Assembly (NCBI GenBank): GCA_015520605.1
Contig: WAPT01000024.1
Span: 12,645-76,644 of the forward strand
Reading direction: 5' to 3'
Length of the DNA: 64,000 bases
Source of the DNA: Nanobdellati archaeon
Lineage (GTDB): Archaea > EX4484-52 > WAPT01
The position numbers were made by a program, and so were the translations under genes. This document shows positions 1-51,507 of this stretch, piece by piece. Below the pieces are notes generated by a model, which saw only the letters and a list, made by a program, of their open reading frames with translations, ran no database searches and had not been told where the DNA came from. Positions within the stretch are counted from its first letter, which is position 1, and each line of letters opens with the position of its first letter.

Positions 1-421
1 GTTCCCCTCCCTGAAACTCAATCCCAATGTATTTTTTGGGAAGTTTTTCAATGAACCTCACACAATCTCTCATGATTTCTCCGTCCATCTCCACGAACCT
101 TTCGGGTGAGGATTCCGCATGGCAATACCTACATGCAAGATTACACCTCAGCGTTAGATTTATCTGAACGGTCACCATCGGCATCGAATGAATATAGCCC
201 AACCTTTTAATTATGTTCTTCAACACCCTGTTGATATTTCCCTCCGTTATGACAATGTTTCTTTCTTCTAACTTTTTCAGAAGGTCATCACTCACCTCTC
301 CCCTCCTGAGCATCCTCAGCTCCTTTTTGTCCAGAATTATCCAGTCTCCGAATCTTGTGGTCAGGAGCACTTTTCCATTGCTTAATTTTTTCTCGAAACA
401 TTCATTGGGTAGGTAGCGCAT
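1..421 (-). CDS. Radical SAM protein (second of a tandem pair), 5'-partial at the window edge. The N-terminus is present; an ~90-aa extension precedes the CxxxCxxC motif and may be RRE/PqqD-like.
   Basis: Hand translation of the minus strand from ATG at 421 gives MRYLPNECFEKKLSNGKVLLTTRFGDWIILDKKELRMLRRGEVSDDLLKKLEERNIVI...LTLRCNLACRYCHAESSPERF. The C-x3-C-x2-C motif (CNLACRYC) is typical of radical SAM enzymes. A GGGTGGTGGG Shine-Dalgarno-like run lies directly upstream, 14 nt after the stop of the preceding radical SAM gene. The ORF runs off the window start. Confidence 0.6.
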   Translation of the reverse strand, partial: MRYLPNECFEKKLSNGKVLLTTRFGDWIILDKKELRMLRRGEVSDDLLKKLEERNIVITEGNINRVLKNIIKRLGYIHSMPMVTVQINLTLRCNLACRYCHAESSPERFVEMDGEIMRDCVRFIEKLPKKYIGIEFQGGE

Positions 422-435
422 CCCACCACCCTATT

Positions 436-1359
436 TTATTGGGTTATGGGCACGATTTCATCAGCGCCGAAGTAATCGATATAAGAGTACCATACCCCCC
501 AGCATTTACTCCTCATCACGCATTTCTCGCAGGGTTCCAGCAGCCCGTAATTGTCCTCGAAACGCCTGTTTATTATCTGTTTCGTGGGTGATTTGTAACC
601 GTAAATGGTCTTCGGCTGCGGTGCGACAAACCTCCACAGGTGTTCCGGAAGGACGCAGTAGGGGAACCCGTAGAACTTAACTCTCAGTCCCGAGCTTTCC
701 ACGATCTCCGCGGCTCTGCTGAGGTTTTCGGTGATATCCGTCATTCTCACCGCAAAGAGCTCGGCATTTCTCAGAGCGTTTCCCGTTATGTCGAGAGCAT
801 GGAAGGAAAAAGCTTTAACATCGTCAAACATGCTCAGCACAAGGCTTGCGATTCTCTCCAGCTCCGTATAGTTTGCTTTCGTGACTATCGTCTTCAGCTC
901 AACGTTCATCCCCGCATCGAGAGCGTTTCTCACACCATGAATTGTTTCTCTGAAGCTCCCTCTCGCTCCCGTGACCCAGTCGTGTTTTTCCTCCTTCCAG
1001 GAGTGAAGCGCCACTATAACATGAATTATAGGATAAGCTGAAAGTCTCTCGGCAAAACAGCGCGAAGATAACCTCCTGCCGTTGGTGAGGAGAACGTAAC
1101 TCAGCCCGGGCCTTCTCGATTTTATCCTCTCAAGTATCTCAAAGAAGTCGTTCCTCACGGTTGGCTCGCCACCGGAAATTTCAAGGATTTGTATGTCTTC
1201 TGGCAGTGAAAGAACAAAATTCACAAGCTCGTTGGTACTTATTTTTTCCTTTTTCGCCCTCTCTCCGGAGCTCACCGCGCATATTTTGCAGTTATTGTTG
1301 CACTGATACCCGAAAACACAGTAGGCCTTTTTTATTTTCATCGTGCTCATATTCTTCAC
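436..1359 (-). CDS. Radical SAM protein with a SPASM/twitch-like Cys-rich C-terminal domain; putative peptide-modifying maturase.
   Basis: The ORF-track protein contains CNNNCKIC (CxxxCxxC) near the N-terminus and a GGEP glycine-rich motif. The C-terminus reads ...GFPYC...EPCEKCVMRSKCWGVW (CX2CX5C), as in SPASM domains. The codon at 1359 is GTG; in-frame ATGs at 1350 and 1341 are alternative starts. Confidence 0.8.
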   Translation of the reverse strand: MKNMSTMKIKKAYCVFGYQCNNNCKICAVSSGERAKKEKISTNELVNFVLSLPEDIQILEISGGEPTVRNDFFEILERIKSRRPGLSYVLLTNGRRLSSRCFAERLSAYPIIHVIVALHSWKEEKHDWVTGARGSFRETIHGVRNALDAGMNVELKTIVTKANYTELERIASLVLSMFDDVKAFSFHALDITGNALRNAELFAVRMTDITENLSRAAEIVESSGLRVKFYGFPYCVLPEHLWRFVAPQPKTIYGYKSPTKQIINRRFEDNYGLLEPCEKCVMRSKCWGVWYSYIDYFGADEIVPITQ

Positions 1360-1413: not shown

Positions 1414-1707
1414 TTAGTGTCCCCCATTACTCCAGTTACTCCAATCACACCATTCACTCCAATCGTGCCAGTTTATCCAGTTGTTCCAGTGGTTGTTCAA
1501 CCAGTTGTTGTACTCATTTTGGAGATCCTTCCAGCTCTGCTCGTTTGTAACGCAGTTATGGTGAGTGGATTGGGTGTGTGCAAGTTTTGAAAGGAGAGGG
1601 AGGGAACACACCGCAGTAAACAGGAGAAACATGTTCAGCGCCCCTTCACAGTCATCCTTGGATACCAGCATGGATCTCATTTTTCTAAACCGATCTCTCC
1701 AGCTCAT
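1414..1707 (-). CDS. Trp/Asn-rich repeat peptide; candidate RiPP precursor or secreted peptide. It has an N-terminal polar region, a hydrophobic signal-like segment, and a C-terminal (W-x-x)n core.
   Basis: The ORF-track protein ends ...NNWLNNHWNNWINWHDWSEWCDWSNWSNGGH. Trp recurs every third residue seven times in a row, mirrored in the DNA as CCA every 9 nt on the plus strand. Arg codons are AGA/CGG, matching genome usage. An AGGTG Shine-Dalgarno-like motif lies 8 nt upstream of ATG 1707. The gene sits 54 nt upstream of, and co-directional with, two radical SAM genes. The hydrophobic stretch MFLLFTAVCSLPLLSKLAHT resembles a Sec signal or TM segment. Confidence 0.45.
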   Translation of the reverse strand: MSWRDRFRKMRSMLVSKDDCEGALNMFLLFTAVCSLPLLSKLAHTQSTHHNCVTNEQSWKDLQNEYNNWLNNHWNNWINWHDWSEWCDWSNWSNGGH

Positions 1708-2056
1708 TCTCTACACCTTCATAATCTTCAGACTGTTTTGATATGTCCGGTATCACCCCCTTTATCGCCAGCTCCAGCAGGAGTTTTCTTACATCTCCAA
1801 ACCTGCGTAGATTCATCTCTTCCATCTCCGCCTGCAGCAGTTCAGCAAAGAACGCATCAATGAGTTCCTCTGTGTTCTCCCCTTCAGGCGGCTTTAACTC
1901 CACAGTGATCTCCTCGATACCGTCTCCGAGCACACGAACTCTGCATGTCTCAAGCATTCTGTATGCAGCTCTCATAACAGTGCTTTTTGAATAAAGTGTC
2001 GAAGGGAGCTTTATTTTAACAATACCGTCGGCAACTTCAACAGTTTTTTTATCCAT
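1685..2056 (-). CDS. Hypothetical 123-aa acidic protein in the pilin/rSAM array, with unknown function. The track ORF extends to a GTG at 2176.
   Basis: ORF-track frame 1685..2176 (GTG start). The first in-frame ATG is at 2056 and gives MDKKTVEVADGIVKIKLPSTLYSKSTVMRAAYRM... Its stop overlaps the start of the W-rich peptide gene, which is an operon-like arrangement. Confidence 0.45.
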   Translation of the reverse strand: MDKKTVEVADGIVKIKLPSTLYSKSTVMRAAYRMLETCRVRVLGDGIEEITVELKPPEGENTEELIDAFFAELLQAEMEEMNLRRFGDVRKLLLELAIKGVIPDISKQSEDYEGVENELERSV

Positions 2057-2115: not shown

Positions 2116-2316
2116 TCATTTCGGCAACAGACCGGCCACATACTTCCCAATACCCACGATCTTGCCAAGCCACCACCAGTTGGATTGAATGGCACTGATG
2201 ATGGGGGATGCCACAGTTTCAAGCAGGATGTATGCGAGGGCGATACAGAGTATAAACACGACAATATAAATTATCAGCATTATCTGCCCGCCGACCAGAG
2301 CCTTTCTTCTGACCAT
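2116..2316 (-). CDS. Small hydrophobic membrane protein (66 aa, two predicted TM segments).
   Basis: ORF-track protein MVRRKALVGGQIMLIIYIVVFILCIALAYILLETVASPIISAIQSNWWWLGKIVGIGKY. It has an ATG start and lies 12 nt downstream of the preceding small ORF on the same strand. Confidence 0.35.
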   Translation of the reverse strand: MVRRKALVGGQIMLIIYIVVFILCIALAYILLETVASPIISAIQSNWWWLGKIVGIGKYVAGLLPK

Positions 2317-2328
2317 AAAATCGACCTT

Positions 2329-2484
2329 TCAGCCTCCAGCCTTTTCCCAAGGGAGGTCTGCGAGACCGAAGATTTTGTCCACAGAACCTTTACCTAATTT
2401 TATTATTATAAGTACCACGGCAGTCATTAATAATATAATAAAGATGATCTCCACCCAGGAGAGACCTTTATTGCTTCCGCGCAT
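2329..2484 (-). CDS. Small class III signal peptide (archaeal type IV pilin-like) protein of 51 aa. It falls below the ORF-track size cutoff.
   Basis: Hand translation: MRGSNKGLSWVEIIFIILLMTAVVLIIIKLGKGSVDKIFGLADLPWEKAGG. It carries a KG|LSxxE prepilin-peptidase-type motif followed by a hydrophobic helix. Its ATG overlaps the TGA of the upstream pilin-like gene (TGATG). Confidence 0.45.
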   Translation of the reverse strand: MRGSNKGLSWVEIIFIILLMTAVVLIIIKLGKGSVDKIFGLADLPWEKAGG

Positions 2485-2990
2485 CAGCACTCACCTGTTT
2501 TCCCACAAGTAGAATTAATGACTATACATATGCTCTGACAATTATCTTTGGTAATTGTGATATTAGTTTCCTTACCGTCTGCGGGTGCGGTAATTTCTGC
2601 GGTGCAGGTGCCGTCATCGGACACGGTGCACTCAGCTTCCGGCTTATCATTCGATTTTATAGTTACCGTGCCGCTTGTGGTGCCTGTGAGTTTCAGGTTT
2701 ATAACGCACTTTCCATCGTTGTTCTTTGTTATGTCCTTCAGCTCAATTGAACATGATGTGCTGCTGCCACCCCCCACGGTTTCATTGACTTTCTCCCCTA
2801 TGCCCACGGTTGTCTGATTTATCGATTGTTTTGTGGATTTGAACGCAGGAAGCAGAGTACCGCCGTATACCCGTATTATAATCGCAGCCATTATCATGAG
2901 TATAAGAAGAATTATTATTATTTCCAAAAATGAAAGACCTTTTTTATACCAATCCCGTATGTTTTGTGTAAACATTTTGCGTTGGGGCAT
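2484..2990 (-). CDS. Archaeal type IV pilin-like protein with a class III signal peptide and a Thr/Cys-rich C-terminal domain.
   Basis: The ORF-track protein has ...YKKGLSFLEIIIILLILMIMAAII (KG|LSFLE, Glu at +5) followed by a Ser/Thr/Cys-rich secreted domain. Its start codon directly abuts the stop of the upstream gene. Confidence 0.6.
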   Translation of the reverse strand: MPQRKMFTQNIRDWYKKGLSFLEIIIILLILMIMAAIIIRVYGGTLLPAFKSTKQSINQTTVGIGEKVNETVGGGSSTSCSIELKDITKNNDGKCVINLKLTGTTSGTVTIKSNDKPEAECTVSDDGTCTAEITAPADGKETNITITKDNCQSICIVINSTCGKTGEC

Positions 2991-3194
2991 TTACCATTTA
3001 CCTCCTGTTATGTTCTTCATACCTTCCTGTACCGTCTGGTTAGATTTTTCTATACCCGAACTGACGAGTTCTCCGAACTTGTGCAGGTTGGCACCCCCTA
3101 TTTTAATAATAATATATCCCATAACCATGGCGATTATGATAACTATAACTATCCAGAACACCTTCTCAAAACCCTTTCGCACACTTGCCATCAA
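2991..3194 (-). CDS. Small membrane protein, possibly a minor pilin-like protein.
   Basis: ORF-track protein MMASVRKGFEKVFWIVIVIIIAMVMGYIII... It has an N-terminal RKG motif followed by a hydrophobic helix, and a 4-nt ATGA overlap with the upstream gene. Confidence 0.4.
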   Translation of the reverse strand: MMASVRKGFEKVFWIVIVIIIAMVMGYIIIKIGGANLHKFGELVSSGIEKSNQTVQEGMKNITGGKW

Positions 3195-3379
3195 ATCACC
3201 ACTCCGAATTTCGCCCTTGCAACATCCATAATTTTGTCAAAAATACTCTTTATTTTTTCATCAAGTTTAACATTCCAGTGTTTGAAAAGTACAATAAAAA
3301 TAAAGGTCAGAAACACAAGCAACAGTATAATAAACACAACTTCTATATGAGATGTGCCCTTCTTTCCCTGCTTGACCAT
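3191..3379 (-). CDS. Small class III signal peptide (pilin-like) protein.
   Basis: ORF-track protein MVKQGKKGTSHIEVVFIILLLVFLTFIFIVLF... It has a KG|TSHIE motif (Glu at +5) and is the first gene of the minus-strand array. Confidence 0.5.
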   Translation of the reverse strand: MVKQGKKGTSHIEVVFIILLLVFLTFIFIVLFKHWNVKLDEKIKSIFDKIMDVARAKFGVVI

Positions 3380-3557
3380 AACTTATAAATGTGATACTCA
3401 CCTTAAATATATTATGGTATTTCTCAGCACGAATAGTACAACATACAGAAAGGGTCTGCAGCTGTCGATATCTCTTCTCATAACTCTCCTGTTCGGAATC
3501 CTGCTCCTCTACGTGCTCTTTCACACAGCATTGACATATTTTGGAAGGTAGTGGTTC

Positions 3558-3773
3558 ATGCCGGGAGGCACATTTAAAAGAAGGAAAGGTCTTGAATTGG
3601 GCCTAACGGAATTCGGGCTGATAATGCTGGCACTTTTCATAGGTATGATTATTTTTGTTTTTTTGACCAAGGAAGGCGGATTTCTGGATAAAGTCAGAGA
3701 AACGGGATGCGACCTCAGCAGTTTCATAACAGGTTTTCTGAAAATCATCGGTATCAATACGTCCATTTGCTAA
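3558..3773 (+). CDS. Small pilin-like / class III signal peptide protein, divergent from the minus-strand array.
   Basis: The ORF-track protein has ...KRRKGLELGLTEFGLIMLALFIGMIIFVFL, with a KG motif followed by a hydrophobic helix. It is convergent with the IleRS gene. The antisense ORFs 3521..3766 and 3603..3785 were judged less likely. Confidence 0.4.
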   Translation: MPGGTFKRRKGLELGLTEFGLIMLALFIGMIIFVFLTKEGGFLDKVRETGCDLSSFITGFLKIIGINTSIC

Positions 3774-3781
3774 TAAACGAG

Positions 3782-6700
3782 TCACGCCCCAATAATTCTG
3801 AATTTGATCCGGATTCCCTCAGTTTCAAATTCATCTCCGTCCTCCACAGTTTCAAACCTAACGGATATATTGGTGTCCTTTTCAATCATTTCCTTCCATC
3901 TCTCCACGAACTCCTTACTTCCCTCAACAGCAACCACAGCCTTATCCTCAAACCTCAGACCAAGTTCCTTCCTCGCGAGCTGAATTCTCCTTATGAATTC
4001 CCTTGCGATACCCTCCTCCTTAAGCTCGGGTGTTAGTTCAACCTTAAGAAGCACGGCGGTGTTCTTCACCACTCTGCCGTCATAGCCTTCGGGCAGGGAA
4101 ACCAACTTCACTCTAACATCGATCATGTCTCCTGTTAGTTCAAAACCACCAATCTCGATTCTTCCATCTTTTTCAAGAGCTTCGAGCACATCCTTTCCGT
4201 TTAGAGACTTGAGCGCCTCCACAACCTCTCTAGTTCTCTTTCCGAATCTGGGTCCTATAACATCATACCTTGGTCTCACTTCGTAATCTAATTGGATGTC
4301 ATCCCTTATTTTAACTCTCTTCACATTCGCGAGTTTCATGATTATCTCCTTTAGATTACCAAGAGCTTCGGTGAGCTCATTCGCGGAGAGCACAACCTCT
4401 TCGAGAGGCCACCTGAGCCTTATATTGCGGCTCTGCCTCATGGAGTTTACCTCCTCCACCACACCCATGACAAGATCCATTTTGCTTTCCAGAGTTTCGT
4501 CGATTTCCTTTTCGTTCCATGAAGGCCAGGACAGCAGATGTATGGATCCCTCTCTTACAATCTCTCTGAAAACCTTGAGATAGAGGTACTCAGCAACATA
4601 CGGTGTAAACGGCGCAAGCATTTTCAACACTTCGAAGTAAGCTCTGGAGATGACGTAATCCATGGCATCCCTGTCCACACCTTCATCGTACCTCTCCTTT
4701 GCTATTTTCAGGTAGAATCGCGAGAAGTCTTCCATCACGAAGTTCACGATTTCCCTGGCAGCGTAATGGAAGTGGAAGGTGTCTATGTACTCAGTAACTC
4801 TTTTTATGGTTGAGTTCAACCTCGAGAGCAACCATCTGTCTTCGGCCCTGCTTACATACTGTTGGTTATCAAGCCTTATCTTTACACCGTACATGTCGAT
4901 GAAATTGGAAATATTGACAAGAATGTTCATGAAGCGGAAAAGCTCCTTTGCTTCATTCATGCTGAACTTGTGCGTTTCCCATGGAGCTGTGCTGTAGCAT
5001 ACGTAAAGCCTTAGAACATCAGCACCAAGCTGCTCGAAGGCCTCCTCAGCCGAGATCACGTTGCCCAAGCTTTTGCTCATCTTCTCTCCTTTTTCATCAA
5101 GAACCCATCCGTTCATGCACACAACATCGTATGGCCTCTCTTTGAAAGTTGCAGCTGACATGAAAAGCATCGCGTGGAACCATCCTCTTATTTGATCCTG
5201 AGATTCATCAACCAGATCAACGCGCCACAACTTGTTAAACAGACCGCTATCATTGTAAGGGTAGCCGAGTGATGCCCAAGGAGCGACACCGCTCTCCACC
5301 CATATATTTATTATGTCTGGAATCCTTTTCATTTCCCCTCCACACTTCTCGCAGCGCAGCACAACTTTATCAACGACATGCTTGTGAAGATCATCAAGCT
5401 TAACTTCATTTATCATTCTCTCATCCAACTCCTTTTTGCTGCCGATGGCAATCATGTGTCCACAGTTCTTACACTCCCAGATTGGGATCGGAGCTCCCCA
5501 GTAGCGCTGCGTGGATATACACCAATCCTCTTCATTCTCCACCCAATGCTTCATTCTCTCCCTTGCAAAATCAGGGAGCCACATTGTTTCTTCGTTGAAT
5601 TTGAGCATGAGATCCTTTATCGGATCGATGCGGAAGAACCACTGGTCGGTGGTGCGATAAATTAAAGGTGTCTTGCACCTCCAGCAGAGCGGGTAGCTGT
5701 GTACTATTCTCTCAGCATGGAAGAGCAAACCTTTTGCTCTCAGATGTTCTATTATCTCCTTATCGGCATCCTTCGCAAACTTACCTTTAAGCCATCCAGC
5801 CTCGCTGGTAAACCTGCCCTCATCATCAACAGGAGAGAGCACGGGCAGGTCATAATGCTGCCCGAGCTTGTTATCCTCAGGCCCGTGGCCGGGGGCACAG
5901 TGCACTATCCCTGTACCGACATTCATCGTTACCATGTGGCCGAATACTTCCTCTTCACTCTCCTTACTTTCGATCTCTTTCTTGACCATAACCTTAGAAG
6001 CAACTACTTTCTTCAGAATCGGTACAGACAGCACTACCCTATGGGCTCTCCCGCTCTTTGCAGCTTCCTGCTGAACCGGCAGCTCTGACATGAGGGGCTC
6101 ATATTCTATCCCGTCAAGATCCTTACCCTTTAAGACTTCCACAACCTCATAACTTTCAATTCCCGCTCTTTTCATCACATCTTCAAGCCTTTTCTCAGCA
6201 AGAATGAGAATCTCATCATTGACCTTCACTTTAACGTAGTTCTCGTCTGGATGCACAACGAGAGCTACATTGGCTGGCAGAGTCCACGGTGTGGTGGTCC
6301 ACGCAAGGAGGTATTCATTCTCCTTGTCCTTAACCTTGAACTTAACATAAATGGAAGGGTCTGTGACATTCTTGTATGAATCCGTTGCCTCATACCCCGA
6401 AATGGAGGTCTGACACCTCGGGCACCAGTGGATTGGTTTTTTACCCTTGACCATCAACCCTTCATCGAAGAGCTTCTTGACGGTCCACCATGTGCTCTCT
6501 ATATAGTATGGCTCATAAGTCAAGTAGGGCTGTAGCCAACCCTTCCAGGCTGCAAGATCTTTATAGTAGTTCATCCACTCGGTAAGATTCTGAGTGGCAA
6601 ACTCCTTACACATCTTTATAAAGTTCTCAACACCAACTTTTTCTTCAATCTCCTTTTTGGATTGTATGCCAAGTCTCTTTTCCATCATGTTCTCAATTGG

Positions 6701-6973
6701 CAGTCCGTGGCAGTCAAAACCCGGCTGGAACCAGACAGCATAACCATTCATGAACTTAAACTTACCCCAGAGATCCTTGAAGACTATGGTCATGGCATGC
6801 CCGGCGTGGGGTGGCGCATTTGCATACGGAGGACCATCAAGTAGATAGAATTTCTTACCCTTTTTCTTTAGATTCTCCTCGAAGTCCACAATTTTTTCTG
6901 GGACTTTGTTCTTCTCCCAGTACGCCTTAACTTCCTGCTCGATCTTTCTGAAATCGTACTGCATGGTGATCAC
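3782..6973 (-). CDS. ileS: Isoleucyl-tRNA synthetase.
   Basis: 1063-aa class I aminoacyl-tRNA synthetase with a PPYANAPPHAGHA (HIGH-type) motif, a KMSKSLGN motif and Zn-finger cysteines. The codon at 6973 is GTG; an in-frame ATG (MQYDFRKIEQ...) lies at 6964. Confidence 0.93.
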   Translation of the reverse strand: MITMQYDFRKIEQEVKAYWEKNKVPEKIVDFEENLKKKGKKFYLLDGPPYANAPPHAGHAMTIVFKDLWGKFKFMNGYAVWFQPGFDCHGLPIENMMEKRLGIQSKKEIEEKVGVENFIKMCKEFATQNLTEWMNYYKDLAAWKGWLQPYLTYEPYYIESTWWTVKKLFDEGLMVKGKKPIHWCPRCQTSISGYEATDSYKNVTDPSIYVKFKVKDKENEYLLAWTTTPWTLPANVALVVHPDENYVKVKVNDEILILAEKRLEDVMKRAGIESYEVVEVLKGKDLDGIEYEPLMSELPVQQEAAKSGRAHRVVLSVPILKKVVASKVMVKKEIESKESEEEVFGHMVTMNVGTGIVHCAPGHGPEDNKLGQHYDLPVLSPVDDEGRFTSEAGWLKGKFAKDADKEIIEHLRAKGLLFHAERIVHSYPLCWRCKTPLIYRTTDQWFFRIDPIKDLMLKFNEETMWLPDFARERMKHWVENEEDWCISTQRYWGAPIPIWECKNCGHMIAIGSKKELDERMINEVKLDDLHKHVVDKVVLRCEKCGGEMKRIPDIINIWVESGVAPWASLGYPYNDSGLFNKLWRVDLVDESQDQIRGWFHAMLFMSAATFKERPYDVVCMNGWVLDEKGEKMSKSLGNVISAEEAFEQLGADVLRLYVCYSTAPWETHKFSMNEAKELFRFMNILVNISNFIDMYGVKIRLDNQQYVSRAEDRWLLSRLNSTIKRVTEYIDTFHFHYAAREIVNFVMEDFSRFYLKIAKERYDEGVDRDAMDYVISRAYFEVLKMLAPFTPYVAEYLYLKVFREIVREGSIHLLSWPSWNEKEIDETLESKMDLVMGVVEEVNSMRQSRNIRLRWPLEEVVLSANELTEALGNLKEIIMKLANVKRVKIRDDIQLDYEVRPRYDVIGPRFGKRTREVVEALKSLNGKDVLEALEKDGRIEIGGFELTGDMIDVRVKLVSLPEGYDGRVVKNTAVLLKVELTPELKEEGIAREFIRRIQLARKELGLRFEDKAVVAVEGSKEFVERWKEMIEKDTNISVRFETVEDGDEFETEGIRIKFRIIGA

Positions 6974-7305: not shown

Positions 7306-8229
7306 ATGAAAAACTACGAAAAAATTATGAAAAACATTGAACGGCTCGGTGAGAGATATTGCAGAAGATATCTTGACCCGTGGAACAAAGAAAGGTTGCA
7401 GACCAATTGGTGGGAAGCGCTAAAATTCCTTCTTAGCCATTCGTTTATGAGAGGAAGACGAGACAAATTGTCTAACGAATATTATTATTTTACCATTGAA
7501 ACTTTGAAAGATTATTTTTCCATCACTGATGGAGATCTGAACACATCTTATGAGAAGCTTAAAGAAAAGAAAAAATATTTTGACAAAGAATGTATTTTGA
7601 AGTTCAAGAAGAATAAAAATATTGGAAGAAAAAATAGCATTAAAGATCCAGATTTCAGGAAGGAAGTAGTAGGAAAAAATCCAATTGTAAAGCTTCTAAT
7701 TACTCCAAAAGAAGTCAAAGTAAAATGGGACAACAAAACTTACAATAAGGTAACTTGCTTAGGTAATGATGAAGATATAATGATGGTTCTTGATGTTTTG
7801 AAGCTCATTTCAGATGATGATAAGAAGAATATTTACAATTATTTAAGAGATGCGATTGTCAATTTCGGGGTTAAAGCAGCGTATGAAGAATTGATAAACA
7901 TAAGAGCTGTTTCAGATAAAATCTCCACTTTCATCATCAGAGATATTGTTTTAATGAATCCACAAATAAAAATGACATATGAGGACGCCAAATGGGCATT
8001 TCCTATGGATACGTGGGTAATTAAAATTGCCCATAAGTTAGGTTGTAATAGTGAAGATATCGAAAAAATCAAAAACCATCTAATTGATAGGTGTAGGGAA
8101 TTGGGGGTAGATCCGTTAAAGTTTGTAGCAGGGCTATGGTTCTTGGGTTACCATTCGCTTGATATATTGCTAGAAAATTGTATAGGAGAGATCAAAATTG
8201 GGGACATTACTTCGGATAGCATCGGATAA
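7306..8229 (+). CDS. Divergent HhH-GPD-superfamily (DNA glycosylase-like) protein, encoded in an AT-rich island.
   Basis: The ORF-track protein contains ...AVSDKISTFIIRDIVL...FPMDTWVIKIAHKLG. This resembles the helix-hairpin-helix plus catalytic-Asp motif (xPVDTHVxRV) of EndoIII/Ogg/AGOG-type glycosylases. The gene and its flanks (about 6974-8416) are markedly more AT-rich than the rest of the window. Confidence 0.45.
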   Translation: MKNYEKIMKNIERLGERYCRRYLDPWNKERLQTNWWEALKFLLSHSFMRGRRDKLSNEYYYFTIETLKDYFSITDGDLNTSYEKLKEKKKYFDKECILKFKKNKNIGRKNSIKDPDFRKEVVGKNPIVKLLITPKEVKVKWDNKTYNKVTCLGNDEDIMMVLDVLKLISDDDKKNIYNYLRDAIVNFGVKAAYEELINIRAVSDKISTFIIRDIVLMNPQIKMTYEDAKWAFPMDTWVIKIAHKLGCNSEDIEKIKNHLIDRCRELGVDPLKFVAGLWFLGYHSLDILLENCIGEIKIGDITSDSIG

Positions 8230-42172: not shown

Positions 42173-42958
42173 TTGGAGGTCCGGAAGGTATTGTGTGTTG
42201 TGGCCGTGTTTCTGCTGGTGTGTGGTGTTGTGCTCCCACCTGCTGTTGCCGGCGGTCTGTGGGAGCATGTAAAGGAAAAATGGAGCGAAGTCAAGGAGAA
42301 AGTTTCCGAGAAGTATCGTAGAACCAAGGAAAGGGTCTCGCACGGGTGGAACAGGATCAAGGAGGGAACACGGGAGAGATATGAAGAGACAAAAGAAAAG
42401 ATCAAGCAGAAAGTTTCGGAGGGAAAGGAGAGACTCGAGCATAGACTCGAGCATGAGTGGAACGAAATAAAGTCCAGAGCAAAGTTCAAATCACAGAGGG
42501 TTGCAACAAGAGCCTGGGAAACATGGAAAAACATGCCGGAGGAGGACAGGAAAAAAGTGAAAATGGCTCTGATAGGTGGAGCCGTTCTTGTGGGAGTGAC
42601 ATATATGGCGGTGCATCACCCCGGTGCTGTGGCTACAGCTGCGAAATATGCAACAGCGATAATGATCAAAGACGGCAAGCTTGCCGTTTATGATCCAGAA
42701 ACAAAGGAAATCATTGAGTCGGCAGCAATGCAGGAAATCTCAAATAAGACGCACGGGCTTGTCAAATCGAACAATTTTGAGGTTGAGAGTGTTGAAAAGA
42801 TGCCCGATGGCAAGTACAGAATCAAGGTAAGCGCTGATGTCAATCTCTTCTGGTTGATTCCATGGAAACTCGAGAAGGACATCATCATCGATCCCGCAAC
42901 CGGAAAAGCCCAGGTGGATATGGCGTGGTGGGAGACCCCGCCTTTCTATACCGCTTGA
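42173..42958 (+). CDS. Secreted or lipid-anchored protein. After the signal peptide come amphipathic E/K/W-rich helical repeats.
   Basis: The signal peptide MEVRKVLCVVAVFLLVCGVVLPPAVAG is followed by repeated ~11-residue units (WEHVKEKWSEV / KEKVSEKYRRT / KERVSHGWNRI / KEGTRERYEET...). Confidence 0.6.
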   Translation: MEVRKVLCVVAVFLLVCGVVLPPAVAGGLWEHVKEKWSEVKEKVSEKYRRTKERVSHGWNRIKEGTRERYEETKEKIKQKVSEGKERLEHRLEHEWNEIKSRAKFKSQRVATRAWETWKNMPEEDRKKVKMALIGGAVLVGVTYMAVHHPGAVATAAKYATAIMIKDGKLAVYDPETKEIIESAAMQEISNKTHGLVKSNNFEVESVEKMPDGKYRIKVSADVNLFWLIPWKLEKDIIIDPATGKAQVDMAWWETPPFYTA

Positions 42959-42979
42959 TTTTCTAAAATTTTTTAGGAG

Positions 42980-43990
42980 GTGTGGGAAATGGAGGATGTA
43001 GAGGATGTAGGGGAGATTAAGGATGAGGATGTTAAGTACCTGGAAAAAAAGTACCTGGAAAAAATGATAAAGAACAACAGTATGTTCTTCACAAAGAAAG
43101 CTTCCATCTATCCCATCGTGGGCGGGATTCAGGGAGCGCTGTTCCTAATCGTCGGAGCTGTGCCGACCTTCGTTGCTTTTCTGACGTTCCTTATCCTACG
43201 ATCCGGTGCGGGGATATTTCTAAGTTTCGCCGGAGAAAGGGTGATATGGAGCGTAATGCTGCGGATAATCCTAACTTTCATGTTCGGTCTGTGGATGCTC
43301 GCGTTCCTACATTCCGCTGTACTTAGAGAGTTTATGCGTTCGTCTATCGGAGCTCTTATCGGCGGGCTTATCAGCGTTTTCATGACACCCCAAGCTTTTC
43401 CAGAAGTGAAAACTGCAGGACTTCTTCTTATCTTCTCAAGCTTTGTGACCATGGCCTGCATCGTGATATGTAATGAAGAGGCCAAGAGGATAGCAAAGAG
43501 GAAAGTGAGGATAAAACAGGTGGATGAGGAGACTCTGAAGCTCATCAGGATCATGGAGAACATAAAGTCGTCCGCGGATTTCTATGCGAGGATCGTGAAC
43601 GCACTCTACTACATCTGCACAGGACTCGGGGTGCTTTTCGTGGGCAGCATGACTGTATTTTCCCATATTCCAGTTTATTCATACGTCCATGTAACATCAC
43701 ACCATCCCAATTTCTGGAGCATACTGTTATTTTCACTGGCATTCACCATGCCGCTGGCATTGGTGTTCTCATTCCGAAAATACCTTTACTGGACAGGCGT
43801 CGCATTCTTCAGTATCCTGGCCGTCGTTTTGGTAGCTAAGGCCGTATCCAGCAGACTGTACATAAACGTCTTGGGACTGATAGCTCTGGTAGCTGCTGTA
43901 GCAATGCCTGTCCTGGCACTGATGTTATCACCTATCCTGAAGCATCAGAGGCTAAGGGAGAAGGTGATGGAGATAGGAGAACTGCTTTAG
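42980..43990 (+). CDS. Polytopic membrane protein of unknown function.
   Basis: 336 aa with multiple hydrophobic segments and an acidic N-terminus. Confidence 0.55.
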   Translation: MWEMEDVEDVGEIKDEDVKYLEKKYLEKMIKNNSMFFTKKASIYPIVGGIQGALFLIVGAVPTFVAFLTFLILRSGAGIFLSFAGERVIWSVMLRIILTFMFGLWMLAFLHSAVLREFMRSSIGALIGGLISVFMTPQAFPEVKTAGLLLIFSSFVTMACIVICNEEAKRIAKRKVRIKQVDEETLKLIRIMENIKSSADFYARIVNALYYICTGLGVLFVGSMTVFSHIPVYSYVHVTSHHPNFWSILLFSLAFTMPLALVFSFRKYLYWTGVAFFSILAVVLVAKAVSSRLYINVLGLIALVAAVAMPVLALMLSPILKHQRLREKVMEIGELL

Positions 43991-44104
43991 CATTCTCATA
44001 TTTTTATTTTATTATTTTTTCTTATGTTTTGTTGGAAAATATTCCCATAAATTCAGATTATAACATTAAAAAATTCCGGCCACTTAATTTCCTCCACGAT
44101 TCTC

Positions 44105-45868
44105 ATGCTGGTGGGTGAAGTTTTCGGCAAGACCGGTACCAAAACCTTCCAGTTTCGAGCTTACAAGGAGGTCAACAGAATGGATTTTGTTACTGTGAAG
44201 AGTGTTGATGACCACTGGCTTCTCTGCCGGATTGAGGATGTGGAGATGTATCCTGACGGTAAGATAATCGGCAAAGCAAGGATAATCGGTTACAGAGAAG
44301 ATGGGATACTGAAGATCCCAAAGGTCCCCATTAAGCCCAACAGCCTTGTTTACAAAGCAGACAAGGGAATCATAACTGAAGTTCTCAATTTGAAAATGGA
44401 CGGCCTTTACATAGGCGTGCTTGAGGCTAATGAGGATGTGAAGGTATACCTTGATCCGCAGGAGCTCATATCAAAGCATGTTGCCGTGCTTGCCGCCACC
44501 GGATCGGGTAAGTCTTACACGGTCGGTGTGCTCATAGAGGAGATAGCGGAGAGGAGGATTCCGATCGTGGTGATCGATCCCCATGGCGAGTACACATCCA
44601 TGAGGTTTCCGAATGATCAGAAGGATGTTAAGGCTTTCAAGAAATTTGGAGTGAATCCGAAGGGTTATGATGTGCAACACTACAGCCCCGATCCCCGCGT
44701 TAACCCCGGTGCTATGCAGCTCAGCTTTGGTTACGATGAGATAGATCCGAGAGAGATAGGCATGCTGTTTCCCTCAAAGCCCACAGCTTCTCAGCTCGCC
44801 TTGCTTTATGCGGCTTTTAAGAGAATAAAATCCACAAAAAAGAACTTCACACTCGATGATATTATAGCGGATGTGGAACAGAGTCAGAGCCAGAGCAAGT
44901 GGAACGTAATAAACATGCTCGAGATGCTGAAGGATATGAGAATTTTCAGCGGGAATCCCACCCCCGTCACAAAACTGGTGGTGCCGGGAAAGATAACCGT
45001 TATTAACCTGAGAGGGGTAACGCAAGAAGTTCAGGCCTACGTCGTGTACAAGATGGTTGAAAGGTTGTTCGAAGCAAGAAAAATAGGGATGATAAATCCA
45101 TGTTTCCTTGTGATTGAGGAAGCGCACAACTTCGTGCCGCAGAGCGAGGCAAAGATAAGCTCAAAGATAATAAAAAACGTTGCTTCCGAAGGAAGGAAGT
45201 TCGGTTTGGGGCTTTGTGTAATAAGCCAGAGACCGGCAAGGATAGACAAGAACGTGCTGAGCCAGTGCAACACACAGATAATCCTAAGGATGATGAATCC
45301 AAACGATTTGAAAGCTGTGAGCTATGCTGAAGGGCTTAGCGCTGAGCTGGAGAAGGAGATAAAGAACCTCAACACAGGCACCGCTCTTATGATAGGGCAG
45401 GAATTTCCCATCATAGTTAAGATAAGGGTCAGGAGGAGCAAGCACGGCGGAACAACTCAAGACGTTACGGAGCAGAGAGAAAATACGATCCCAATATTCC
45501 TACCTCTCAAACCAGTTCAGCACGTGCCGTCTGGAAGCAAGGTTTACTATCCCTGCTGGGTTTTCAATTCTGAGGGGAAGCGCTATGTTATGGACGCGGT
45601 ACAGGGTAAGTTCCTCTTCTTTGATGGAAACGTCGTCAGAGAGCAAAACGGAAGTGGGAGTATATTAGAAATGAATATAGAGCACGGCACAGAAGAGATT
45701 GTCGGTAGAGTTATAAGGGCTGAAATAGGTCACAAACGGGCATTGAGCATCGGGAAGAAATTCTTTGGCAGAATTGATAGTGTACAACTTGTTTACTATC
45801 CTTACATTGTAACGGAGGATGAGCTCATCGATCTTGTAACCGGAGCGATGAAAAAGTTGGGAAGATAA
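44105..45868 (+). CDS. HerA-like / DUF87 P-loop ATPase (FtsK-HerA superfamily).
   Basis: N-terminal barrel-like segment, Walker A (AVLAATGSGKSY) and Walker B (...LVIEEAHNF). No NurA-like partner is present in the window. Confidence 0.75.
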   Translation: MLVGEVFGKTGTKTFQFRAYKEVNRMDFVTVKSVDDHWLLCRIEDVEMYPDGKIIGKARIIGYREDGILKIPKVPIKPNSLVYKADKGIITEVLNLKMDGLYIGVLEANEDVKVYLDPQELISKHVAVLAATGSGKSYTVGVLIEEIAERRIPIVVIDPHGEYTSMRFPNDQKDVKAFKKFGVNPKGYDVQHYSPDPRVNPGAMQLSFGYDEIDPREIGMLFPSKPTASQLALLYAAFKRIKSTKKNFTLDDIIADVEQSQSQSKWNVINMLEMLKDMRIFSGNPTPVTKLVVPGKITVINLRGVTQEVQAYVVYKMVERLFEARKIGMINPCFLVIEEAHNFVPQSEAKISSKIIKNVASEGRKFGLGLCVISQRPARIDKNVLSQCNTQIILRMMNPNDLKAVSYAEGLSAELEKEIKNLNTGTALMIGQEFPIIVKIRVRRSKHGGTTQDVTEQRENTIPIFLPLKPVQHVPSGSKVYYPCWVFNSEGKRYVMDAVQGKFLFFDGNVVREQNGSGSILEMNIEHGTEEIVGRVIRAEIGHKRALSIGKKFFGRIDSVQLVYYPYIVTEDELIDLVTGAMKKLGR

Positions 45869-49546: not shown

Positions 49547-50248
49547 TTATCTCCCGAACCTTCTCTCCCTCCCGAAAAAATCTTTCAGCGCTTTTCCAAA
49601 CTCATCCCTGCTGAACTCGGGCCAGAGAGCATCGCTGAAGTAAAGCTCGGAATATGCGGCCTGCCACAAAAGAAAGCCAGACAACCTTTTCTCACCGCCG
49701 GTCCTTATTATGAGGTCGGGATCCGGCATACCATTCGTATAGAGATATTTTTGGAAAAGTCCTTCATCTATGCTTCGTCTATCGATCTTCCCACCCTTCA
49801 AGTCATTCAGCAGTTTTTTGACACCATCAACTATTTCGGCTCGCCCTCCATAGGCTATCGCAAAATTGACAACATAATCATCGTAATCTTTCGTTGATTC
49901 CACAGCCCTTTTTATGGCATCTTTAACATTAGATGGAAGCAGGTGAATCCTGCCTATCACGTTTATTCTAACACGGTTTTCATGAATTTCCTTATCCCTT
50001 GGAATTGCGTCGAATTCCTTTTTGAATATCCTCATCAGCATTTCAAGCTCTCTTTTTGGCCTCTTTGTGAAATTTTCAAGCGATAAAGAATAGAGAGTCA
50101 CATATTTGACATCAAGATCTCTGCACCACCTAAGCACTTCCCTGACCTTTTTGGCACCCCACTCGTGTCCCTTCCACGGCTTCTGCATTAAACGTCTGGC
50201 AAATCTCCTGTTCCCGTCCATGACGAAGGCTATGTGCTGAATCTCCAT
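49547..50248 (-). CDS. uppS: Undecaprenyl/cis-prenyl diphosphate synthase (UppS family).
   Basis: Motifs HIAFVMDGNRRFA...; RTGGEKRLSGFLLWQ. Confidence 0.92.
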   Translation of the reverse strand: MEIQHIAFVMDGNRRFARRLMQKPWKGHEWGAKKVREVLRWCRDLDVKYVTLYSLSLENFTKRPKRELEMLMRIFKKEFDAIPRDKEIHENRVRINVIGRIHLLPSNVKDAIKRAVESTKDYDDYVVNFAIAYGGRAEIVDGVKKLLNDLKGGKIDRRSIDEGLFQKYLYTNGMPDPDLIIRTGGEKRLSGFLLWQAAYSELYFSDALWPEFSRDEFGKALKDFFGRERRFGR

Positions 50249-50286: not shown

Positions 50287-51507
50287 TTATCTCAAGATGG
50301 TGGCGAGCTTTATCAGCTTCGGTCTCCTCAGAAGGATTTTGGCAAGCTTTCTCAGGTTCTTGCCTCCGGCAAAATCAATTATATCCTGAACTGTCAGCTC
50401 ATCAGCCAGGAAATTGAGGTCGTCATCGCTCATCCTTTCTATTACCTGCCTGAGTTTCTCAATCCTCCTGAGCTTTTCTCCCCTTTCCTTCCACCACAGC
50501 TCGTTAAACTTCGCTAAAGCATCATGACTGACATCCTCCCTATTCAGACACTCACAAATTACTTCAGCGGCTATCTCTCCGGCTCTCGTACCCTCATCCA
50601 TGCCTCCGCCGTGTATGGGATTTACTGTATGGGCAGCATCACCAATAACAACAAATCCGTCCCTCACCATGTCCTTGAGCAACCCTCCAACAGGTATGCC
50701 GCCGGCGTTCTCCTCTATTACGCTTGCATCAGCAAAAATCTCTGGATGGTTCTCTATCCATGAGTCAAGGTACTCCTTTGCTTTTCTCTTGACTCCAGCC
50801 CCTCCCCCTATTCCTATGCCCACGTTCGCAACATGGTCTCCCTTGGGGAATATCCAGATGTAGCCTCTTGGAGCAATCTCGTTGCCGAGATAGAAGTAAA
50901 GCTTGTTTGCGTCTTTCAGCTTTAAGTTAGCCATCTCGTACTGGTAGCCGCTATCCACATTGATAAGCTTATTTGTGTTGTCTATGCCGGCTTTTCTTGC
51001 CATTTTCCCCTCTATACCCTCGGCTGAAACGACCACCCTGGCCTTTACCTCAAAGACATCTTCCCCGTACTTGATAACAACACCGCTTATTGCTCCATTA
51101 TCCTTAAGCAGATCTACTACCTCTATCTTGGTGAATACCTTTGCTCCGGCTTTGGCGGCATCATAAGCTAAGAATTTATCGAAAACCTTCCTCTCAACCA
51201 CACAACCTTGGGGTGAACCGTAATCCATCACGAATTCCTTGCCGTTTGGAGCGTAAAGGTAAAAGCCATCAATGTACTGTGCAACAAACCTTTCATTACC
51301 GTTATAACCCATTCTCTGCAGAGCCTTGACACCTATGCCCTCCGCACATCTCTTGGGTGAGCCTATCTCAGCCCTCTTCTCAAACACCGCAACGCTGAGA
51401 CCTCTATCAGCTATCAGCTTAGCACACCTGCTCCCAGCTGGACCTGCACCTATGACAACAACATCGTAAGCGTTTTTTAAACCAACAGGCCTAGGGATTT
51501 CGATCAC
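50287..51507 (-). CDS. Geranylgeranyl reductase (digeranylgeranylglycerophospholipid reductase).
   Basis: FAD-binding motif VVVIGAGPAGS and GGR family features. Confidence 0.88.
   Translation of the reverse strand: MIEIPRPVGLKNAYDVVVIGAGPAGSRCAKLIADRGLSVAVFEKRAEIGSPKRCAEGIGVKALQRMGYNGNERFVAQYIDGFYLYAPNGKEFVMDYGSPQGCVVERKVFDKFLAYDAAKAGAKVFTKIEVVDLLKDNGAISGVVIKYGEDVFEVKARVVVSAEGIEGKMARKAGIDNTNKLINVDSGYQYEMANLKLKDANKLYFYLGNEIAPRGYIWIFPKGDHVANVGIGIGGGAGVKRKAKEYLDSWIENHPEIFADASVIEENAGGIPVGGLLKDMVRDGFVVIGDAAHTVNPIHGGGMDEGTRAGEIAAEVICECLNREDVSHDALAKFNELWWKERGEKLRRIEKLRQVIERMSDDDLNFLADELTVQDIIDFAGGKNLRKLAKILLRRPKLIKLATILR

Follow-up and report, generated by a model that had tools for sequence, protein, structure and literature searches.

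A tightly packed block in the genome of an uncultured DPANN archaeon combines genes for small pilin-like proteins, radical-SAM enzymes predicted to modify peptides, and a Trp-rich peptide. We found seven pilin-like genes in the 64-kb stretch of DNA that was analysed (the window), between positions 2116 and 3773, and three more just outside it, beyond the radical-SAM cassette, which brings the set to ten. Judged from their sequences, these appear to be new, lineage-restricted pilin-like proteins that are unusually coupled to a radical-SAM cassette. The best overall explanation, which we hold with moderate confidence, is that the ten proteins would be cut by a peptidase and belong to a type IV pilus-like filament or a pseudopilus.

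Layout and conservation of the pilin-like genes

The block consists, in order, of IleRS, pilin-like genes, an Hxs-like cassette, a membrane protein gene, and a second pilin-like cluster (Table 1). It is kept whole in three lineages with long contigs, with a variable outer flank, and is partly visible in a fourth lineage on a short contig (L026), where five genes are followed by HxsD. An initial annotation had pointed to this adjacency of pilin-like genes and radical-SAM cassette, which is thus a conserved one. It had also described five ORFs, all of which lie where it placed them; it missed p66 and p45, and its count of five becomes seven in the window and ten overall.

Table 1. Features at the start of the window (positions in the window; ↓ marks the predicted cleavage site).
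Feature	Coordinates	Strand	Description
HxsB-like radical SAM/SPASM gene (461 aa), 5' part	1..421	-	Start at 421; runs past window start; TIGR03978, 3.6e-74
HxsC-like radical SAM enzyme, 304 aa	436..1350	-	TIGR03977, E = 6e-54; Pfam Radical_SAM, 4.8e-20
pre97, 97-aa precursor-like	1414..1707	-	Hydrophobic N-terminal segment; C-terminus of seven consecutive W-x-x triplets
HxsD-like protein, 123 aa	1685..2056	-	TIGR03976, E = 1e-7; precomputed Pfam HxsD
p66, 66 aa	2116..2316	-	Class III-like, RRKA↓LVGGQIMLIIYIVVF...; RRKA↓LVGGQIML
p51, 51 aa from ATG	2329..2484	-	Class III-like, SNKG↓LSWVEIIFIILL...; SNKG↓LSWVEIIF; predicted mature part 44 aa
p168, 168 aa	2484..2990	-	Class III-like, YKKG↓LSFLEIII...; 8 Cys, 4 N-x-S/T sequons
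p67, 66 aa from ATG	2991..3191	-	Class III-like, VRKG↓FEKVFWIVIV...
p62, 62 aa	3191..3379	-	Class III-like, GKKG↓TSHIEVVFIILLL...; GKKG↓TSHIEVVF; first gene of minus-strand row
Divergent intergenic region, 34 nt	3380..3413	.	TATA-like boxes TTATAAAT (p45) and ATATATTTAA (p62)
p45, 45 aa	3414..3551	+	Class III-like mini-protein, MVFLSTNSTTYRKG↓LQLSISLLITLLFGILLLYVLFHTALTYFGR; ATG at 3414; YRKG↓LQLSISLL
p71, 71 aa	3558..3773	+	Class III-like, RRKG↓LELGLTEFGLIML...; RRKG↓LELGLTEF; two conserved Cys

Two members, p45 and p71, lie on the plus strand, and the other five form a minus-strand row (p62-p67-p168-p51-p66) with gaps of -1, 0, -1, and 12 nt. The TGATG overlap of the p168 stop with the p51 start, noted in the initial annotation, is real, and the same overlap joins the p62 stop to the start of p67. 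Shine-Dalgarno-like elements precede internal genes. On the other strand, p71 is the second gene of a divergent two-gene unit, starting 6 nt after p45 and downstream of a GAAGGT Shine-Dalgarno-like element. We took the ATG at 3191 as the start of p67, for which the ORF list has a TTG at 3194 (67 aa). The p45 gene sits inside a listed ORF (3354-3551) and has orthologues in L005 (13423-13560; MKKA↓GLSV..) and L028 (17132-17248; MKKA↓SLQL..), and the 51-aa gene was also called by gene callers on three independent assemblies. GC content around the cluster is slightly low, at 0.41.

The second cluster is convergent and lies past the HxsB-like gene and a 272-aa membrane protein; the region beyond the window start was seen in the same locus of another assembly (L001). 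Its genes overlap, and the sizes of their products climb from 145 through 164 and 228 to 748 aa (q145, q164, q228, and q748). The class III-like members are q164, q228, and q748; the K-[GA] motif is wholly absent from q145, the first gene. The Cys-rich q748 has three relatives only, and its AF2 model was unusable (pLDDT, 46).

All the pilin-like genes are under purifying selection, with a pN of 0.24 to 0.43 against a pS of 0.64 to 0.89 in comparison with the L005 orthologues, from a relative whose IleRS is 76% identical to that of the window. The values are 0.36 versus 0.79 for p45, 0.32 versus 0.76 for p62, and 0.24 versus 0.89 for p71, which is conserved best among the small members (identity, 65% with L005 and 53% with L028); dN/dS is ~0.31 for p67, ~0.16 for p51, and ~0.17 for p66. 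The pilin-like ORFs are real genes that are conserved and co-directional and, for the most part, coupled in translation. Chance ORFs in AT-rich DNA, or a coincidental cluster of motifs, would be in keeping with the shortness of the small ORFs (45 to 71 aa) and the low local GC. Against this, the order, length, and motif of the ORFs are kept in four lineages, pN is far below pS, gene callers found them independently, and the motif is strongly enriched (see below). We give this reading practically no chance, and in our assessment it is already refuted by the comparative data.

The TATA-like boxes of p45 and p62, read by eye, are each centred ~28 nt upstream of their own ATG. This spacing points to divergent transcripts of the two genes that would be leaderless. 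A/T boxes have a similar layout in L028 (17060-17110). A sigma-70 promoter scan was set aside as irrelevant, since the host is an archaeon.

Class III-like signal peptides and their predicted processing

We found that the residue at -2 of the predicted cleavage site is Lys, never Arg, in all 35 orthologues (ten families, three to four lineages), and that the residue at -1 is only Gly (25/35) or Ala (10/35). Ten Gly/Ala swaps, spread over eight of the ten families, occur among leaders that differ in length (4 to 18 aa) and sequence, in families that are otherwise unalignable with one another; p66, for example, has Ala at -1 in the window and Gly in L005 and L026. The K-[GA] pair directly precedes a strongly hydrophobic helix, which places the site before the H-domain near the N-terminus, and an uncharged 16-residue window (mean hydropathy, 2.5 to 3.7) begins 0 to 8 residues after the predicted site. 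This pattern fits the published criteria for archaeal class III signal peptides, in which a charged residue at -2 is critical (PMC4371748, PMC3387779) and -1 is Gly, Ala, or Ser.

To the ORFs we applied a FlaFind-like rule of our own, which calls for [KR][GA] in the first 35 residues and, starting within 8 residues, an uncharged 16-residue window with a mean Kyte-Doolittle hydropathy (H) of ≥2.0. Seven ORFs between 2116 and 3773 were positive at their first start codon (H, 2.9 to 3.7), and the four other positives in the window all required internal starts and had an H of just 2.0 to 2.2. A control of 289 kb of unrelated loci gave 26 positives, true bacterial and Epd-like pilins among them, and the rule recovered its positive controls, bacterial pilins (L021) and an Epd-like MKG↓QAAVEYL protein (L010). 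The density is ~4.2 positives per kb in the cluster versus 0.09 per kb in the control, a ~47-fold enrichment. Under what we take to be the +1/+2 residue sets of FlaFind itself, p67, p71, p45, and q228 would fail.

Downstream of the site, the +1 residue is L, T, F, A, Y, V, G, S, or D and is never Gln in any family. An acidic residue at +5 is invariant in two families across four lineages each, p62 (E, E, E, D) and p51 (E, E, E, E); the p168 family has Glu at +5 in the window lineage only, and the other families lack Glu/Asp there. The absence of Glu at +5 is usual for some minor pilins. K-G↓x-S-x-x-E had been called the canonical archaeal motif, which is imprecise: Glu at +5 is typical of bacterial pilins and EppA substrates and of just a subset of archaeal pilins (PMC4371748). 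Here, Glu/Asp at +5 is conserved in just the 62-aa and 51-aa families. Among other conserved residues are an acidic +2/Lys +3 pair in p67, N-x-S/T sequons at the C-termini of p67 (N-I-T) and q164, and Cys residues in p71 (two), p168 (eight in two lineages and four in L028), q145 (six), and q748 (13 to 23).

The initial annotation's claim of a class III motif followed by a hydrophobic helix thus holds for K-[GA] and falls short at the level of families: no pilin model is reached. Searches of Pfam, NCBIfam, and PADLOC with all members gave no family above threshold. N_methyl (PF07963) scored 13 bits for p168 against a cut-off of 21.2, and no other pilin or class III signal-peptide model of Pfam and NCBIfam matched any of 26 sequences; Flp1_like gave a best E value of 0.004 in 2 of the 26, and TadF was likewise marginal. 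Profile searches of solved structures with p62, q164, q228, q145, and the 272-aa membrane protein gave nothing above noise and no solved pilin. Homologues of the pilin-like proteins were found in this lineage only, and a JGI metagenome scan with p71 had no match. IMG/VR scans with p62 and HxsC were also empty, so that nothing here points to viruses or mobile elements as the source.

The p168 model has a helix (residues 4 to 46), a disordered, low-confidence Ser/Thr/Gly linker of 29 residues (47 to 75), and an eight-stranded Ig-like beta-sandwich of the adhesin type (81 to 167); the tiny members lack a globular domain entirely. Foldseek matched the model to generic Ig-like domains, none at an E value of ≤1e-3, with archaeal filament subunits among the matches: an archaellin (5tfy) at rank 3, the Sulfolobus islandicus pilus (8tib) at rank 16, and the P. 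arsenaticum pilus (6w8u) at rank 36. A word-indexed homologue search returned only p168 itself, HMMER against 1.84 billion representatives found one lineage relative and Ig-like repeats of large adhesins, and a profile search gave nothing beyond the HMMER matches. Because p168 is the fastest-evolving member (31 to 39% identity) and carries a linker and an adhesin-type Ig-like domain, it seems better taken as an adhesin, or as a pilin of a minor or modular kind, than as a major pilin. The initial annotation had proposed a "major pilin or adhesin".

We strongly infer that the products insert in the membrane with the short Lys-rich leader in the cytoplasm and that a PibD/FlaK-type peptidase encoded elsewhere would cut after the invariant Lys-Gly/Ala, leaving a hydrophobic N-terminal helix. 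By analogy, these helices would then pack together at the centre of a filament resembling a type IV pilus, or of a short pseudopilus. Glu/Asp at +5 marks the tiny p62 and p51 (54 and 44 aa when mature) as candidate core subunits; the members counted as lacking it, namely p67, p66, p71, p45, and the Ig-domain protein p168, would be minor or tip subunits, with the Cys-rich q748 as a possible tip adhesin. The predicted mature part of p45, at 31 aa, is practically a single hydrophobic helix, and we know of no precedent for a mature pilin of that size. The layout suggests that the pilin-like set may be co-expressed, and perhaps cooperates, with the Hxs-like cassette between its two clusters.

We found no T2SSE-type ATPase, FlaJ/TadC/PilC-type platform, or A24 peptidase within ~82 kb, a span made up of the window with ~7.5 kb of preceding and 10 kb of following sequence, and none in the flanks of the related loci (L005/L029 and L028). 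The sole machinery-type match in those flanks was an L029 protein with a PIN domain and faint T2SSE similarity; no EppA-like peptidase was seen. Archaeal pilin-only loci away from the ATPase, with at least five minor pilins and Cys-rich components, have precedent (PMC4858521), and type IV filament systems have been reported in DPANN archaea (bioRxiv 10.64898/2026.04.22.720090).

The Hxs-like cassette and alternative roles

The best matches of the cassette score 183 bits for HxsC (cut-off, 268), 250 for HxsB (cut-off, 370), and 32 for HxsD (cut-off, 50). Because all three scores are under the NCBIfam cut-offs, we regard the cassette as a distant HXS relative rather than an equivalog. A JGI metagenome scan with HxsC found one distant bacterial locus. 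The HxsD-like gene follows p66 on the same strand after 59 nt, and in L028 it begins directly where the p66 orthologue ends (0-nt gap). The W-x-x triplets of pre97 take the place of H-x-S repeats, of which it has none; searches of Pfam and NCBIfam assigned it to no family, nor was a peptidoglycan-binding domain detected in it. Its N-terminus is ambiguously class III-like, with [DE]G↓ALN in three lineages. We left its assignment as a class III protein weak, since L028 has VG↓ALN.

The 272-aa membrane protein follows the HxsB-like gene outside the window. A bacterial Hxs-like locus (L027) contains an A24-like protein, which was the source of the idea that the 272-aa protein might be a divergent A24 prepilin peptidase. 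We rejected this candidate (BLASTP E value, 0.41; hhalign probability, 0.8%; transmembrane region without a conserved Asp).

An alternative that we consider unlikely is that the pilin-like products are uncleaved, N-terminally anchored small membrane proteins serving the Hxs-like system, where they might, for instance, export the Trp-rich peptide, act as its scaffold, or confer immunity to it, with K-G/A as no more than a positive-inside flank. Their genes run in the same direction as the cassette and almost adjoin it (gap of 59 nt in the window, 0 nt in L028), the block persists in the three long-contig lineages and HxsD still follows five genes in L026, the pilin family models are unmatched, and pilus machinery was not found nearby. 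In bacteria, moreover, export and processing of HxsA need other Hxs proteins and take a non-canonical route (PMC13128918). A mere positive-inside flank, however, would not hold Lys and then Gly or Ala in 35 of 35 sequences, and the same motif heads the large exported p168 and q748, which do not resemble immunity or export subunits. Glu/Asp at +5 within the hydrophobic helix is a pilin hallmark (PMC4371748), and bacterial HXS systems are nearly always just four genes, without pilin-like proteins (PMC13128918).

Class III processing could also yield, instead of an adhesive pilus, a short membrane-proximal pseudopilus or a platform of the bindosome type for the export or display of other proteins, possibly the matured Trp-rich peptide; this we judge quite unlikely. 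The many, mostly tiny members have diverse +1 to +7 residues and include no obvious abundant major pilin, and the rising sizes and overlaps of the second cluster resemble minor-pseudopilin sets with a large tip protein. The bacterial relative of the adjoining cassette makes an exported effector (PMC13128918), and bindosome-type use of class III proteins is known in archaea (PMC4371748; bioRxiv 10.64898/2026.04.22.720090). Such a platform is computationally indistinguishable from a true pilus; counting against it, no secretion ATPase is linked to the locus, and pre97 is not clearly class III.

Lower still do we place the probability that both pilin-like clusters and the cassette form one surface module, in which a small-subunit pilus or pseudopilus carries, anchors, or exports a Trp-rich peptide cross-linked by the radical-SAM enzymes. 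Type IV pili are the receptors of many archaeal viruses. Because of this, and because bacterial HXS blocks phage DNA entry at the envelope, such a module could act in archaea as an antiviral gatekeeper associated with the pilus; alternatively, an episymbiotic DPANN cell could use it to attach to its host.

Comparison with known systems

The prevailing view is that DPANN archaea live attached to other cells, yet few of their surface appendages have been characterised. Under our favored explanation of peptidase-cut filament subunits, the locus supplies ten candidates for one DPANN lineage that current family models cannot annotate, some of which would rank among the smallest pilin-like proteins proposed (31 to 60 aa when mature). 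The conserved coupling to a distant archaeal HXS relative would connect type IV filament proteins with radical-SAM-modified peptides in a way that can be tested, and we found no paper in the literature linking the two. If the link is merely syntenic, these would still be lineage-specific class III proteins, and an example of how Gly/Ala swaps at -1 between orthologues can validate such predictions.

Like archaeal class III proteins, the members have a short charged leader, Lys at -2, Gly or Ala at -1, and a site before the helix (PMC4858521, PMC4371748), with an Ig-like globular domain in a larger member. As in archaeal stand-alone minor-pilin clusters, paralogues share one operon away from the ATPase and platform, and the exported parts are rich in Cys and in N-glycosylation sequons. 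Unlike them, the proteins described here match no arCOG-type or Pfam pilin family, most are far smaller (31 to 60 aa when mature) than typical archaeal pilins, and the cluster is embedded with a radical-SAM cassette.

EpdE, the major pilin of Epd pili, is itself very short, at ~74 aa as a precursor. The locus shares Glu at +5, many minor pilins, and partly unlinked pilin genes with the Epd pili of Methanococcus maripaludis (PMC4371748, PMC3875500), and an Epd-type system 1 has been reported in some DPANN archaea (bioRxiv 10.64898/2026.04.22.720090). EppA substrates, however, require Gln at +1 (PMC4371748), which never occurs here, and the Pfam class III signal-peptide model is unmatched.

The sequences G↓LSFLE, G↓TSHIE, and G↓LSWVE, each with ~20 hydrophobic residues, resemble the G↓[FLIVMY][ST]x[LIV]E of bacterial IVa/Flp/Tad pilins, and p51 and p62, when mature, are about as long as Flp pilins. 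In contrast to bacterial pilins (G↓FTLIE), the locus belongs to an archaeon, Lys always occupies -2, as archaea require, and Ala is accepted at -1. FimU-PilVWXE with PilY1 and GspH-K are minor pilin and pseudopilin sets with a large tip protein. The clusters are like these in having four or five unequal co-transcribed genes, some without Glu at +5, beside the large, Cys-rich, exported q748; this is an analogy, with no homology detected.

Finally, the cassette shares HxsD-, HxsC-, and HxsB-like proteins with bacterial HXS antiphage systems (TIGR03976-03978), together with a precursor that has a hydrophobic N-terminus and a repetitive C-terminus. It differs from them in its W-x-x rather than H-x-S repeats, in its gene order (D-precursor-C-B plus a membrane protein), in its archaeal host, and in the pilin-like genes that flank it.

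Gene content and conservation of the cluster

The initial annotation described five pilin-like genes. We found all five where it had placed them, with N-termini identical to those quoted, and read the TGATG stop/start overlap that joins the genes for p168 and p51 (p-names give predicted pilin-like proteins by length in amino acids). The p62 and p67 genes are joined by the same overlap. Two further genes, p66 and p45, had been overlooked, so the count of five was too low. The intergenic gaps in the minus-strand row are -1, 0, -1, and 12 nt, and a GGAGGT element lies 9 nt upstream of the p168 ATG. Between the divergent start codons of p62 and p45 is a 34-nt spacer with two TATA-like boxes, each centered about 28 nt upstream of its own ATG, which suggests that these transcripts may be leaderless and divergent.

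Features of the window and of related loci (window positions unless a locus is named)
Feature	Position	Strand	Remarks
HxsB-like radical-SAM/SPASM gene	runs past window start	-	after HxsC-like gene
HxsC-like radical-SAM gene	436-1350	-	after pre97
pre97, 97-aa precursor	1414-1707	-	C terminus of seven consecutive W-x-x triplets
HxsD-like gene	1685-2056	-	first downstream of pilin-like row
p66	2116-2316	-	MVRRKA then LVGGQIML
p45	3414-3551	+	YRKG then LQLSISLL; 6 nt before p71
IleRS	3782-6973	-	
307-aa protein	7306-8229	+	adjoins IleRS
Possible ATPase module	42173-45868	+	ORFs 42173-42958 and 42980-43990; ATPase 44105-45868
Closing membrane protein, 272 aa	L001 13952-14770	+	after HxsB-like gene; ends Hxs-like operon
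Its orthologues	L005 17861-18655; L028 11776-12615		
Cluster 2, four overlapping genes (145, 164, 228, 748 aa)	L001 14721-18572	convergent	~1.7-5.6 kb beyond window start
154-aa protein	L028 6381-6845	-	
608-aa protein	L029 2797-4623	+	
Bacterial Hxs-like cassette	L027 8113-10456		contig Ga0082212_10007839

We found orthologues of all members, in the same order, in L004 (same species-level lineage) and in the related L005, L026, and L028. The small genes, the 51-aa one included, were also called by gene callers on three other assemblies. Between the window and L005, pN was 0.24 to 0.43 and pS 0.64 to 0.89 for each small ORF, as expected under purifying selection on the predicted protein. That the small ORFs arose by chance, a reading to which we give almost no credence, is excluded by these comparative data. 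We concluded that the pilin-like ORFs are real, conserved genes in an operon-like arrangement.

The window DNA is archaeal and carries TBP, aIF5B, a ribosomal-protein operon, geranylgeranyl reductase, and HypD/E/F. Its IleRS shares 94% identity with the enzyme of a MAG titled "Nanobdellati archaeon" (the NCBI kingdom name for the DPANN group) and 75% with that of an unclassified "archaeon" MAG, followed by Aenigmatarchaeota at 42 to 43%. Pairwise IleRS identities of 70 to 76% place the window, L005, and L028 lineages at about equal distances from one another. The 307-aa protein beside IleRS has no family match; L029 has a 283-aa gene in the same position. Farther along, two ORFs without convincing family matches lie 5' of a HerA/DUF87-type ATPase gene, and together they could represent a HerA-NurA-like pair or some other ATPase module.

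Class III signal-peptide signature

We aligned ten families (p45, p71, p62, p67, p168, p51, p66, and q164, q228, and q748 of cluster 2) at the predicted cleavage site. We found that the -2 residue was Lys in 35/35 sequences and that the -1 residue was Gly in 25/35 and Ala in 10/35, with Gly/Ala swaps within 8 of the 10 families. Across these families, leaders of 4 to 18 aa vary freely in length and sequence, and a strongly hydrophobic stretch directly follows the site. From the alignment we strongly infer a class III signature for the pilin-like proteins. The alternative, that they are uncleaved small membrane proteins in service of the radical-SAM system, seems unlikely to us; a plain membrane anchor is disfavored because a positive-inside flank alone would not keep Lys-[Gly/Ala] so fixed.

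K-G followed by x-S-x-x-E had been taken as the canonical archaeal motif. Lys-Gly/Ala is indeed fixed, but Glu at +5 occurs in just some of the pilins of archaea (PMC4371748, PMC3387779). Here, Glu/Asp at +5 is invariant in the p62 and p51 families and is found in the p168 family in the window lineage only, and most p66 sequences have Gln there. Conserved polar residues lie elsewhere in p67 (E/D at +2, K at +3) and q228 (E at +4). None of the ten aligned families has Gln at +1, the residue that EppA requires.

We also wrote a FlaFind-like rule: [KR][GA] within the first 35 residues, then, at most 8 residues later, a 16-residue uncharged window with a mean hydropathy of at least 2.0. Within 2116-3773 the rule picked out seven genes, each read from its first start codon (scores, 2.9 to 3.7). 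Four further positives in the 64-kb window each needed an internal start (scores, 2.0 to 2.2). In 289 kb of unrelated loci we found 26 positives, which include as positive controls genuine bacterial pilins at L021 and an Epd-like protein (MKG then QAAVEYL) from a Micrarchaeota locus. Thus, the local density is about 47 times background.

Against the pilin models in Pfam and NCBIfam, every member stayed below threshold. N_methyl scored 13 bits for p168 versus a cutoff of 21.2, Flp1_like and TadF were marginal, and the remaining pilin and class III signal-peptide models gave no match. Comparison with solved pilin sequences gave no match for any member. Our searches, which reached from about 7.5 kb ahead of the window to 10 kb beyond it, turned up neither a T2SSE-type ATPase nor a FlaJ/TadC platform protein nor an A24 peptidase; the flanks of related loci likewise yielded none. 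The sole machinery-type match, the 608-aa L029 protein (PIN domain and faint T2SSE), lies 5.7 kb from cluster 2 in the L005 genome and is probably a widespread archaeal PIN/PilT-like ATPase rather than a pilus assembly ATPase. Archaeal pilin genes are commonly unlinked from their machinery (PMC4858521, PMC4371748), and type IV filament systems have been reported in DPANN archaea (bioRxiv 10.64898/2026.04.22.720090).

In L028, the 154-aa protein has LVRKG followed by VSPFLSIILVVVFTIGVAIIV and by eye looks like a PilA-type archaeal pilin. Its Pilin_N match is only E = 0.58, and it has no counterpart at the equivalent window place (between 49547-50248 and 50287-51507). If real, this pilin would imply class III processing in that lineage.

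The C termini of p67 (N-I-T in each of the four lineages) and q164 keep N-x-S/T sequons. Conserved Cys counts are 2 for p71, 6 for q145, and 13 to 23 for q748; p168 carries 4 Cys in L028 and 8 in two other lineages. The conserved sequons and Cys counts point to predicted export. In the AlphaFold2 model of p168 (two-sequence alignment; mean pLDDT, 71.8), a helix spans residues 4-46, residues 47-75 form a Ser/Thr/Gly linker of low confidence, and residues 81-167 fold into a beta-sandwich of eight strands (pLDDT, ~88). In Foldseek, an archaellin ranked 3 and archaeal pili 16 and 36 among generic Ig-like matches, with no match at E ≤ 1e-3, archaeal filament subunits included. Its orthologues match Big_1 (3.7e-5), MG4, and Invasin_D3, and p168 is the fastest-evolving member (31 to 39% identity). 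Given this architecture, the Ig-like/adhesin-domain matches, and the fast evolution, we take p168 to be an adhesin, as suggested earlier, or a minor pilin of modular build, and not the major pilin that had also been suggested.

Linkage to the Hxs-like cassette

Hxs models were the best matches for the cassette proteins, every score being under the curated cutoff. The pre97 triplets (WNN WIN WHD WSE WCD WSN WSN) keep their W-x-x periodicity in L005 and L028, and pre97 looks like a predicted three-residue-motif substrate of the HxsB/HxsC-like pair, not a His-Xaa-Ser protein. The closing membrane protein (264 to 279 aa, multi-pass) is conserved, including a soluble segment (VGEFPAE ... IRIQRK), and has no family match. 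In cluster 2, K-[GA] plus an H-domain motif occurs in q164, q228, and q748; q145 has an acidic "MAEE" N terminus and no K-[GA]. q748, with 23 Cys, has only three relatives in databases.

Three lineages (window, L005/L029, and L028) have the block from IleRS through q145 intact; on the L026 contig, which is short, only the five minus-strand genes and then HxsD are present. What borders cluster 2 on its outer flank differs: DJ-1 and phosphodiesterase-like genes for the window lineage, Alba for L005, and TIM, prenyltransferase, GGR, and NIF3 for L028, the last four located at 49.5 to 53.6 kb in the window. That the block is kept while its outer flank changes, and that the p66 orthologue and HxsD have zero gap in L028, argues for linkage beyond mere synteny; shared function is not proven, and co-function is suggested only. 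Our literature search found no paper tying radical-SAM peptides to type IV pilins.

A bacterial metagenome contig (L027) holds a distant Hxs-like cassette with HxsD, an HxsD-like protein, an HxsC-like gene, and a membrane protein of 344 aa that matches Peptidase_A24 below threshold (E = 3e-4) and, by eye, has putative catalytic Asp motifs (SDL...; AAGDCKL). We see in this a hint of a prepilin-peptidase-type enzyme at work in some Hxs-like systems. Between our closing membrane protein and the 344-aa protein, likeness extends over only the last 28 residues and falls short of significance.

Proposed model and known systems

We hold the following model, as a whole, to be reasonably probable. The products would be class III signal-peptide proteins, cleaved after Lys-Gly/Ala by a PibD/FlaK-type peptidase encoded elsewhere, and their hydrophobic helices would join to build a pseudopilus or a filament like a type IV pilus. 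Candidate core subunits are p62 and p51, with Glu/Asp at +5; the other members, such as Ig-like-domain p168 and Cys-rich q748, may be minor or tip components. Filament assembly and subunit roles are proposed by analogy only. A non-filament pseudopilus or bindosome-like platform, really a variant of this model, appears rather improbable.

The bacterial HXS antiphage system has four genes, and its radical-SAM-matured exported effector stops phage DNA entry (PMC13128918). The bacterial order is HxsD-B-C-A, whereas here we found HxsD-precursor-HxsC-HxsB-membrane protein. A single surface module of pilus and modified peptide, possibly antiviral, is a long shot. Pilin-like class III proteins are an already known kind, also in clusters away from machinery. 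What is new is the pilin-like families themselves, for which sequence searches found no homologues outside this lineage, their very small predicted mature sizes (31 to 60 aa), and their conserved placement around an Hxs-like cassette that is a distant archaeal one.
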